Origin: a virus
Virus genome (UHGV): UHGV-2162644
Strand: one strand, 5' to 3'
Length of the DNA stretch: 23,083 nt
Shown in pieces: positions 3,001-6,000 of this stretch. The position numbers are program-made. The stretch's first letter is position 1. Each line of letters begins with the position of its first letter.

Positions 3001-6000
3001 AGACTCTCATAAAGAATGATTTCTGGTGCCGAACGCTCTCCTTCAGCCCCAACAAACCCCGGCACTATGAACGTTACCTGCAGCGTATGAATGAAAGGAG
3101 GAAGGAATGGGGAATTCTGTGACACCAGAGGTGGAGGTGCTGAGCAAGATGATTCGACAGTACTTCAGTCAGGAACAATCTGAAGAGAAAACCATACAGG
3201 CCCTGAACCATCTCCGCTGCGTACTCCATGAGATCAGCCCCTTTGCTCAAGAACCAGTGGACTGTGTGCTGTGGGTAAAAGCGGATGAAATTGTCGCTAA
3301 CGATTATAATCCCAATGTCATGGCCCCAAGCGAAAAAAAATTACTGAAACAATCTCTGGAAAAAGACGGTTTTACTCAACCAATTGTTGTTTCGGAAGAA
3401 ACAAGCCATTACCTGGTGGTGGATGGTTTTCATAGGCAGTTACTAGGTAGAAGAACAGTTACTGGAAAACGCCTGAAAGGCTGGCTACCAGTAACCTGTA
3501 TTAATCCAGACCGAAAGGGACAAACCTCACGTATTGCCGCGACTATCCGACATAACAGAGCCAGGGGGAAACACCAGATAACCTCAATGTCTGATATTGT
3601 CAGAGATCTTTCACGTCTTGGCTGGACTGATGAACGTATCGGAACAGAACTGGGGATGGACCAGGATGAAGTTCTGAGGTTAAAGCAGATTAGCGGGCTA
3701 ACGGAGTTATTTCAGCAGGCAGATTTCAGCCCTGCATGGACTGTTACATAAAGTTAGGTTAGGCCTGTGGAGCCGGGGAATCGGAATTAAACATCTTCCC
3801 TCCCCGGTAAATACAAATAAGGGCTGAACATCATCCCGACTACCTCAGATCACTTAATAATATATCAAGATTATTTTGCGCATAAATGCTATTCGCCATT
3901 ACTGTTGCTGCTTCTGGCGACTTTCCAAGAGCAATAAATATATCCTTAAGGCTGATTGGAATTGATGAACCATGCGGATCGCGCCACTCACCGCAAATTC
4001 TGTGAGTTTCATCACAAAGCCTGAACGCATCCCAACCTCCATATTGACCAAAAATTATGTCCATTGACTCTATTTCTGCGGGCGATAACTCCCCCAGCTC
4101 ATCAACAGAAGAAAATGTACGCCACATTTCAACCTTATGATCCGCTACATCAGATATCCATGATTCCCACGGACTGTACTCGTTTTCGCTTCCATCCTTA
4201 ACCAAAGAATATGTCTGCGATAAAACGGGTCCTTTGTTCATAGAGAAATAATGATCACCACTAATGGGAAAACCATACAACTCCATTGCTTTGCGGTCAG
4301 AGAGATACATCAGCTTAATGAAACGCATAGATCCGCCATGTTTTTTCAGCAAATACGCTGCCATTTACGCAACTTTTTCTTCATTAAACATAAATCGGCT
4401 CTCTGTCTCACATGAAATACTCTTTCTGACTATATGTTAATAGCTCCGGTTATTACAGGTTAATGTGTGTTTATTTCTTAATCAGCCCCGCACTTCCGTA
4501 CGGGGCCATTTCTGTTAATCCACTCCCACTTTTTTGTTGTACTCGCGGTTAAAGCGATCCACGGCAACCTTCATATCCCGCTCTACCGATTTCACCATCG
4601 CCGCCTGCTGCGCCAGACTGAGAGAACTGTCGGCATAAATGGCATCGCGCTGTTTGCGCAAATCCTTCAGTCTCTTCCGGGTATCCTGCATAAGCCCGTT
4701 CATCAACAATTTTCCGTTGTTCTCGTCAATGAACGCCGTTCTTTCTGCACCGGTCAGACTCTTCAGCTCTGCGTGATACTGCGCAACCTCTGTCATCCGG
4801 TCGTACATCTTCTGCTGGTCTGCATACGGCATCACCTCACCCGAAATTTTCCCCAGGAAGGGCACCTGCTGTTCCGGTATATCAATACCATTCAGCGATT
4901 TCACCGCCGCATCCGTGGTTTTGGAAATGAAGCGCCCTGTCCCTCCGGAGATATAGTCAATCCAGAATTTCAGCGATTCCGGTGTGATATCCACCGCGCC
5001 GGGACGATACTGGCTGCCACCTGAGAACGCATTCAGCCAGGATGCAAACGCCTTGTACGCTTCTGGCGTTGAACGTCTTCCCAGCTGGCTGTCAGGTTTT
5101 GGTGTACCAAACGGCATGTTCTCCTGGTAAATCTGCGCCCCCATGAAGTTTTCGTTCATGGCAAGATTCGCAAACGGACGCAGAATTGTCGGTGCTGCAT
5201 TTTTCAGCAATGCCCCGGACAGCGTTTCCGACGTCTCACTGCCAATCGGGCTGAATGCCCCCAGGATACCACCGACAACATTACCGGCAGCACGGGACGC
5301 CGTCAGGTCACCAGCAGCCACACCTTCAGAGGTATGCCCGAGCAGGAAGAAAACGTTGTACCCGTAAGGCAGAGGAATACTCCAGTACTCTCCGGCCCTG
5401 CCCCCGAACATCGATTTCATAATGACGAGGTTACGCTCTTTCACATGATACGGCACCTTGTCGTACCAGTTAACCCCGTCATCATCCTCACCCGCCACAC
5501 TGCGGTTAAGCGAGCCAAGCAGATAACCCGCTCCCACAGCTGCAAGCGCGATTTTCTGCGGTACATTGAGATTCTTCCAGCGAAGGCGCTCCAGTAACGG
5601 CCCGTCGCCATTAAGATGTCCGAGCGTTCTCACCAGGTTTGCGGTCCCCTGAATGCTGGCGTTGGCAAACATATACAGCGAGTTCATCAGCGCTCCCTGC
5701 TCACCACGACGGTTAAAGTTCACCGTCATGTTTTTGGCAAGAGATGCCGCCTGCTGGCGTGACAAACCGGCATCACGGGCGTGTTTATAGGCAGAAAGAC
5801 GCAGAGCGTTTTCAACCGCGCCGTTGGCATCCTCGACCAGGTTCAGGAACGAATGCCATGCACCGATACTCTGGCCTTTCCATCCTCCCTTCGCCAGCGA
5901 TACAAGGCGATCCATTTCCTTCTGCTGGCCTTCAAGGTCACCCATGTTAAACCAGCCGGTTTTACCTCCGTCCTCAACAAACTCTTTCCACACTTTCTGC

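Follow-up and report, generated by a model that had tools for sequence, protein, structure and literature searches.

The Panacea-domain gene panA of the Shiga-toxin-phage-like Escherichia coli prophage analysed here appears to be the surviving, damaged antitoxin half of a PanA-PanT toxin-antitoxin (TA) module whose toxin gene has been deleted to six codons, a reading to which we assign a probability of close to four in five (about 0.78). As the toxin gene has been reduced to this extent, panA would have arisen by ordinary decay and would not represent a novel system that acts alone. The evidence comes from the domain identity of the gene, the partner that accompanies its homologues elsewhere, the fold of that partner, the toxin stub, the lesions within panA and the remnants of both genes in sister phages. 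The main value of the result lies in annotation, since what looks like a solo antitoxin can be explained as what is left of a PanA-PanT module whose toxin had the MazF fold.

The panA gene and its setting

The window, by which we mean the whole stretch of 23,083 nucleotides that was analysed (UHGV virus genome UHGV-2162644), represents the left arm of a 933W-like (Sepvirinae) prophage that has integrated into the E. coli gene ynfG. Its first 820 nt (1-820) begin within ynfG, where prophage and chromosome join (the twin genomes have a truncated 4Fe-4S protein there), and the first antA-like gene (536-820) is annotated in twin genomes as a C-terminally truncated pseudogene. Around panA, the sequence is 99.9-100% identical to that of phage PhiR5_2 (PV340546), and equally so to prophages found in 18 of the 5426 complete E. 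coli genomes.

The 174-aa product of the present panA reading frame (Table 1) matches the Pfam profile PF13274 (SocA_Panacea) with an E-value of 2.4e-19 and 70.7 bits (Pfam cut-off 25.7), the match spanning residues 16-127 and profile positions 2-112 of 113. This search bears out the Panacea (DUF4065) identity that an earlier note on this DNA had proposed for the gene. An identical RefSeq protein (WP_032270877.1) is named 'Panacea domain-containing protein', and PGAP calls panA as a 525-nt CDS. Most of the conserved Panacea residues are still intact, and the GPV signature (G45-P46-V47, within NKGPVLSQ), which is nearly invariant across the homologue alignment and has been reported to be critical for neutralisation (Kurata et al., 2022; PMC8832971), has been kept; the protein is without a complete N-terminal helix and without a complete KLxKLLYL helix. 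An AlphaFold2 model of it shows a compact Panacea-like fold with a pLDDT of 85, a score that is no measure of stability, and a Foldseek search of this model against the PDB returned no match at E<=0.001, that is, no solved Panacea-like structure.

The gene is convergent with ibrAB and co-directional with a giant gene encoding an LPD5/LPD38 protein; 88 bp separate it from the stop codon of ibrB and 150 bp from that of the giant gene. An ORF scan of the window found no ORF of at least 40 aa wholly inside either gap, and a profile of the partner-toxin family described below found no match in the six-frame translation of the window. Both gaps are devoid of a self-contained ORF, and the earlier observation of an orphan panA, convergent with ibrAB and adjoined by no toxin-sized ORF, is therefore correct. 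Its AT-richness relative to its neighbours is likewise real, the GC content being 41.7% in panA, 46-47% in ibrAB, 54.5% in the giant gene and 49.8% in the whole window. Short plus-strand ORFs that overlap panA and the upstream gap were regarded as mechanical listings and rejected as gene candidates. A scan of positions 3650-4650 found no sigma-70-like promoter and, of hairpins, a weak one alone, inside the start region. The 123-bp leader in which the GC stem-loop lies is conserved in all 933W-like phages.

Table 1. Features of the panA locus in the window, and remnants of the same genes in two sister phages (positions of the latter are those of the loci named)
Feature	Position	Strand	Description
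ibrA	1896-3122	convergent with panA	PAPS_reduct+DUF3440
ibrB	3107-3751	convergent with panA	
Inverted repeat CCGGGGA...TCCCCGG	3773-3807	.	junction of the ibrAB cassette and the panT stub
panT stub	3817-3834	-	first six codons, 5 nt past the panA stop
panA, present form	3840-4364	-	174-aa Panacea-domain ORF from the restart ATG
KLM deletion site	4305-4310	-	9 nt (one KLM unit) missing between codons M19 and Y20
Ancestral panA 5' end	4365-4391	-	ATG 4389-4391, codons MFNEEKVA, then TAA 4365-4367
GC stem-loop	4485-4506	-	just past the giant-gene stop, inside the 123-bp leader
Giant LPD5/LPD38 gene	4515-11735	-	co-directional with panA, stop at 4515
L0135 (phage 933W, locus L003)	3734-3922		remnant of the N- and C-terminus of the MazF-fold toxin
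gp69 (75/02 Stx, locus L002)	3930-4112		37 initial codons of panA, joined to unrelated sequence

The partner of panA in homologous loci

In an E. coli P2-like prophage a 186-aa homologue (69% identity) is followed, 8 nt on, by a 133-aa ORF, and in Mixta and related metagenomic contigs the downstream neighbour of a 185-aa homologue (59% identity) is a 134-aa ORF with which it shares a 4-nt overlap; the two partner ORFs are clearly related. The P2-like pair is flanked by the replication gene gpA on one side and by the portal gene on the other. A survey of one genome per species with a 12-sequence panA alignment yielded 27 loci (L012-L038) with a clear relative, and a partner HMM run over these loci found the partner complete in 19, cut by the contig end in two, truncated or frameshifted in four and absent from two. 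Ten phages in the phage collection carry this panA subfamily, and in nine of them (Yersinia YeP1-3, Klebsiella ST13-OXA48phi12.5, a Vibrio phage, Pseudomonas Sirocco, the E. coli phages SKA5 and Lys8385Vzw, and a Helicobacter prophage) the partner stands directly downstream; the lone partnerless phage is PhiR5_2, the twin of the window. The earlier note had suggested checking whether homologues sit beside toxins, and had held that its proposals would be refuted if homologues were always fused to or beside a toxin, one simply deleted here and with no measurable activity left. The answer is largely affirmative, with the partner seen in 21 of the 27 genome loci and nine of the 10 phages and lacking from two loci, and as far as sequence comparison can tell the homologues adjoin a toxin that has been deleted in the window.

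Two loci have unusual arrangements. In one from Candidatus Parabeggiatoa (L019, 4624-5142) the panA homologue is followed by a 172-aa ORF instead of the MazF-fold gene; this ORF contains a Panacea-like KLQKLCYYAQG motif and may be a second, tandem Panacea gene. In another (L032, 3979-4239, minus strand) the MazF-fold partner is convergent with panA, an orientation unusual for the subfamily, and is cut by the contig end.

Searches of Pfam (E up to 10), NCBIfam, PADLOC and the PDB with the partner, both as a single sequence and as a 70-sequence profile, returned only noise, so that a fold search was needed. The AlphaFold2 model built on 46 homologues is confident (pLDDT 95.6), and according to this model the ~133-aa partner has the MazF/Kid/CcdB fold. 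The family comprises 2169 cluster representatives at E<=1e-3, and His20, Phe67, Tyr76 and Gly113 (numbering of P0085, the partner from the E. coli P2-like prophage) are invariant in the P0085 family (e.g. L011:6543-6944; L008:6143-6547). The partner is a large MazF-fold family for which neither Pfam nor NCBIfam has a model.

These distributions also bear on two other partners that had been envisaged for panA, namely that its product acts together with IbrAB, or that it guards against a toxic domain of the giant LPD5/LPD38 protein. Adjacency speaks for both, and the ibrAB variant of the window, confined to 19 genomes with this prophage arm, is accompanied by panA in 19 of 19; to account for this co-occurrence it is enough that near-identical prophages have in common one recent replacement event. 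Against an IbrAB partnership, ibrB homologues (~84% identical) occur in 815 of the 5426 complete E. coli genomes and panA is next door in 19, some 800 genomes having ibrAB without panA, and the similarity of the window to the common ibrB copies ends at ~3745, i.e., at the ibrB stop. Against a guarding role, every relative in which panA has been lost still conserves the giant gene, which is kept in ~210 genomes and 72 phage records that have panA remnants only. In the loci examined, panA homologues pair with the MazF-fold gene and never with ibrAB or a giant gene. Both proposals were rejected on this genome and phage distribution, and we consider them very improbable.

We also would like to point out some features of the two neighbours themselves. 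IbrA has weak PADLOC similarity to BrxP and DndC, and IbrB a weak ParB_N match. The giant gene encodes 2406 aa in the window and ~2790 aa in PhiR5_2 and the E. coli prophage copies. At position ~11761 (site 11735-11800) the window lacks about 1170 nt of the PhiR5_2 sequence, which comprise the intergenic spacer, the start codon and ~1134 nt from the 5' end of the CDS, and with them ~378 N-terminal residues and the native start are gone. As the giant gene has lost these residues and its start, this suggests that the present prophage copy is defective.

The toxin stub and the probable decay of panA

Beyond the panA stop stand the six codons ATGATGTTCAGCCCTTAT (MMFSPY), past which the reading frame diverges and then stops after 15 codons (down to 3787). 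The L0135 protein of phage 933W starts MMFTPYRRGT and intact partners start MSFTPYRRGTVLAPSG, the N-termini of the intact partners as a whole reading M(S/T)(F/L).PYR(R/K)GT. Kurata et al. (2022) define PanAT loci by a partner within 100 nt that is conserved across species; where such an adjacent toxin gene would be expected, the window has the 18-nt stub alone, and panA would be an orphan because its partner toxin gene was deleted. The inverted repeat at the junction (Table 1) probably marks the end of the replaced segment, and any function ascribed to it would be putative.

Both genes have left deletion remnants in 933W at the place where the window has panA. This phage keeps the first ~80 nt and the last ~60 nt of panA, out of frame, and L0135 aligns to the partner profile at positions 2-12 and 91-130 with a whole-sequence E-value of 5e-5. 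The score derives almost wholly from the C-terminal stretch (independent E-value 2e-4); the 10-residue N-terminal piece, not significant alone, rests on the identity of MMFTPYRRGT with MSFTPYRRGT. L0135 matches both ends of the partner and is therefore an internally deleted toxin gene. Like gp69 of 75/02 Stx, it is annotated as a 'hypothetical protein' in a well-known Stx phage. Together with the short ORFs that occupy this site in the 75/02 Stx, POCJ13 and O104:H4 Stx phages, L0135 can be reannotated as a panAT fragment.

The present start codon of panA is not the ancestral one. Relatives start 27 nt upstream of ATG 4364 (MFNEEKVAQMAAYLL), and the upstream translation of the window gene reads MFNEEKVA-stop-MAAYLL, where the 75/02 Stx and 933W remnants and the E. 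coli P2-like homologue read MFNEEK(V/I)AQMAAYLL. Homologues from other bacteria are ~183-188 aa long and start MF(N/S)E..(A/T)QMAAY. At ancestral codon 9 the window has TAA and its relatives CAA (Gln9); since the relatives read glutamine at this position, CAA became TAA, and the annotated ATG is the codon that follows, the two abutting as TAAATG. The nonsense codon is shared by PhiR5_2 and each of the three haplotypes seen in E. coli, and CAA is found in the 933W remnant, the 75/02 remnant and the P2-type copy. A second lesion affects the helix that relatives read as FIKLMKL(L/M)YLSDRK, a stretch whose K, L and L reach 90% conservation or more and from which the window gene has lost three residues. 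The tandem KLMKLM is still present in the 75/02-type remnant P0084, which places the loss of one repeat unit, by slippage, within this phage lineage; remnants of the O104:H4 type also keep the undeleted form (250 nt aligning to 241 nt). The earlier note had missed the non-ancestral start at 4364 and the surviving toxin stub.

Given these lesions, panA may be a fully inert, untranslated pseudogene. This is a sub-case of the decay reading, its confidence not being additive to that of the latter, and we consider it possible at well below even odds. It would agree with the TAA at ancestral codon 9, with the promoter scan, which found no promoter-like site, and with the sequence before ATG 4364, in which no obvious Shine-Dalgarno motif is seen. 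On the other side, TAAATG is a favourable arrangement for termination-reinitiation, and the PGAP call treats the gene as coding. Since the ATG directly follows the stop codon, translation of the 174-aa ORF is plausible.

The fate of panA in sister genomes is in line with decay. Among the 5426 complete E. coli genomes the whole panA ORF is present in 18 only, and ~157 have 933W-type deletion remnants. On the other side, residual function is favoured by the 174-codon reading frame, which remains uninterrupted in each of these 18 and in the inducible phage PhiR5_2, and by the intact GPV, the ATG abutting the stop codon and the predicted Panacea-like fold. An IS3 element lies inside panA in E. coli S1-CAM-02-A (L006), where the 3' end of the giant gene has been removed too, and an IS1 element lies 15 nt upstream of the panA ATG in E. 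coli JNEC-KY204 (L046). Other sister copies have a 26-aa deletion removing GPV, and several encode frameshifted or truncated products. The IS insertions and other lesions in sister copies are independent events, and one phage lineage offers a decay series of a single TA module, by deletion, IS insertion, nonsense mutation and repeat slippage.

The substitution pattern of the orphan points to relaxed constraint, at least as far as it can be read from haplotypes that differ by 1% or less. Between the haplotypes L004 and L005, panA has four nonsynonymous differences and one synonymous difference, and all four amino-acid changes fall at residues 141-171, within the C-terminal 34 residues. For the same pair the giant gene has 15 nonsynonymous and 66 synonymous differences (Fisher p = 0.008 against panA, in a test that rests on a small sample of five panA changes), and ibrAB has one difference in 1.9 kb.

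For the order of events, the expression of panA and its loss of function we infer the following. In this subfamily, intact modules are bicistronic, with panA (~185 aa) first and the ~133-aa MazF/Kid/CcdB-fold toxin second, often with an overlap of 4 nt; the ancestral module would have been a type II PanA-PanT system of this kind, in which PanA would bind and neutralise the toxin directly. Since remnants are found in 933W and 75/02, a 933W-like (Sepvirinae) ancestor would have carried this panA-panT module just past its giant virion-protein gene, where a highly variable accessory region borders. On the way to the window, a replacement ending at the ibrAB cassette would have removed panT beyond codon 6. 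Toxin loss does no harm, unlike loss of the antitoxin while the toxin is still there, and a decaying module is accordingly expected to pass through an orphan-antitoxin stage. With no toxin left to neutralise, panA would drift, as in the codon-9 nonsense mutation, the loss of KLM and the mostly nonsynonymous changes. Its 174-aa product is possibly still made by termination-reinitiation at TAAATG and, judged from its sequence, is most probably without function.

A possible antidote in trans, and comparison with known systems

The earlier note had proposed that panA is a solo antitoxin acting in trans. In such a case the orphan would have been kept as an antidote against MazF-fold PanT toxins of competing elements or of abortive-infection modules, i.e., for anti-addiction or anti-defence. 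The 174-codon ORF is indeed intact in three haplotypes and in a viable phage, its restart ATG abuts the stop codon, the neutralisation-critical GPV has been retained, and an intact, 69%-identical panAT exists in the E. coli P2-like prophage, at a position that we take to be a known anti-phage defence hotspot. There are also precedents: Dmd of T4 is a phage antidote, and chromosomal ccd acts as an anti-addiction system. Directed evolution has been reported to broaden PanA specificity. PanAs are reported to be specific for their cognate toxin, which counts against an antidote in trans. About half of the DUF4065 proteins of Kurata et al. lie outside TA-like loci (PMC8832971), so that stand-alone roles for the domain may exist.

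No target of this kind is evident in the natural hosts, a blastn search with the P2-type panAT having found a panT in none of 5426 complete E. coli genomes (at least 80% coverage), a search that divergent toxins could escape. In addition, the orphan is truncated at its N-terminus and has lost residues from a helix that hardly varies among relatives, its nonsynonymous to synonymous ratio is 4:1 with all amino-acid changes near the C-terminus, its sister copies have been destroyed repeatedly, and the scan around it found no promoter-like site. The solo role in trans does not fare well against this lack of a target and these several signs of decay, and we regard it as unlikely. The narrower proposal that the truncated PanA, made by reinitiation at TAAATG and retained for this purpose in this group of 933W-like prophages, disarms MazF-fold PanT toxins of rival prophages (e.g. 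P2-like ones) seems more doubtful still; if true, it would be a phage-borne counter-defence derived from a decayed TA module. Antitoxin genes orphaned or degenerated through toxin loss, and phage antidotes such as T4 Dmd, share with panA that an antitoxin-type gene without a cognate toxin resides in a mobile element. However, antidotes of the Dmd type are conserved, under selection and with known targets, whereas the copy in the window has lesions and no identifiable target. A practical caution follows for annotation, namely that stubs of lost partners should be looked for before orphan Panacea genes are called anti-defence factors.

Among the characterised Panacea proteins, SocA of the type VI SocA-SocB system of Caulobacter crescentus also carries PF13274, but it acts as a ClpXP adaptor that brings about the degradation of SocB (PMC8832971), and no SocB-like gene was seen in the window or in the homologue loci examined. 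The PanAT of E. coli STEC O31 (T3) resembles the present module in being an antitoxin-first Panacea system of E. coli; it differs in that its toxin is a small transmembrane peptide targeting the membrane, and in that the module is intact and validated (PMC8832971).

The closest likeness is to the T6 and T8 groups of Kurata et al. (2022), which are antitoxin-first and whose PanT is MazF/PemK-like by HHpred and CDD-negative (PMC8832971). The toxin is encoded after panA with -4/-1 overlaps, Enterobacterales are among the members, and T6 includes Proteus, Pluralibacter, Pantoea, Photorhabdus and Beggiatoa (PMC8832971). The T6 pair of Pseudomonas moraviensis has been found toxic, neutralised and co-purified as a complex (PMC8832971); it is given there as PanA WP_083354365.1 and PanT WP_083201923.1, the former starting MIFSEQKVAQ (PMC8832971). 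No accession was found in common between the homologues collected here and the available portion of Dataset S1 of Kurata et al. The window differs from T6 and T8 in that its toxin gene has been deleted and its panA truncated and shortened. The subfamily to which it belongs agrees with them in several respects: its PanA is a stand-alone protein of ~185 aa with no extra N-terminal domain, its N-terminus MF(N/S)E(E/Q)(K/R)VAQ is comparable to the published MIFSEQKVAQ, and it is antitoxin-first with a 4- or 1-nt overlap and a toxin that has no Pfam or CDD match and a predicted MazF fold. By fold, architecture, taxa and N-terminal motif, the subfamily may belong to T6 or T8, and what the window contains would be a degenerate PanAT module of the MazF-fold type at a stage when its toxin has already gone.
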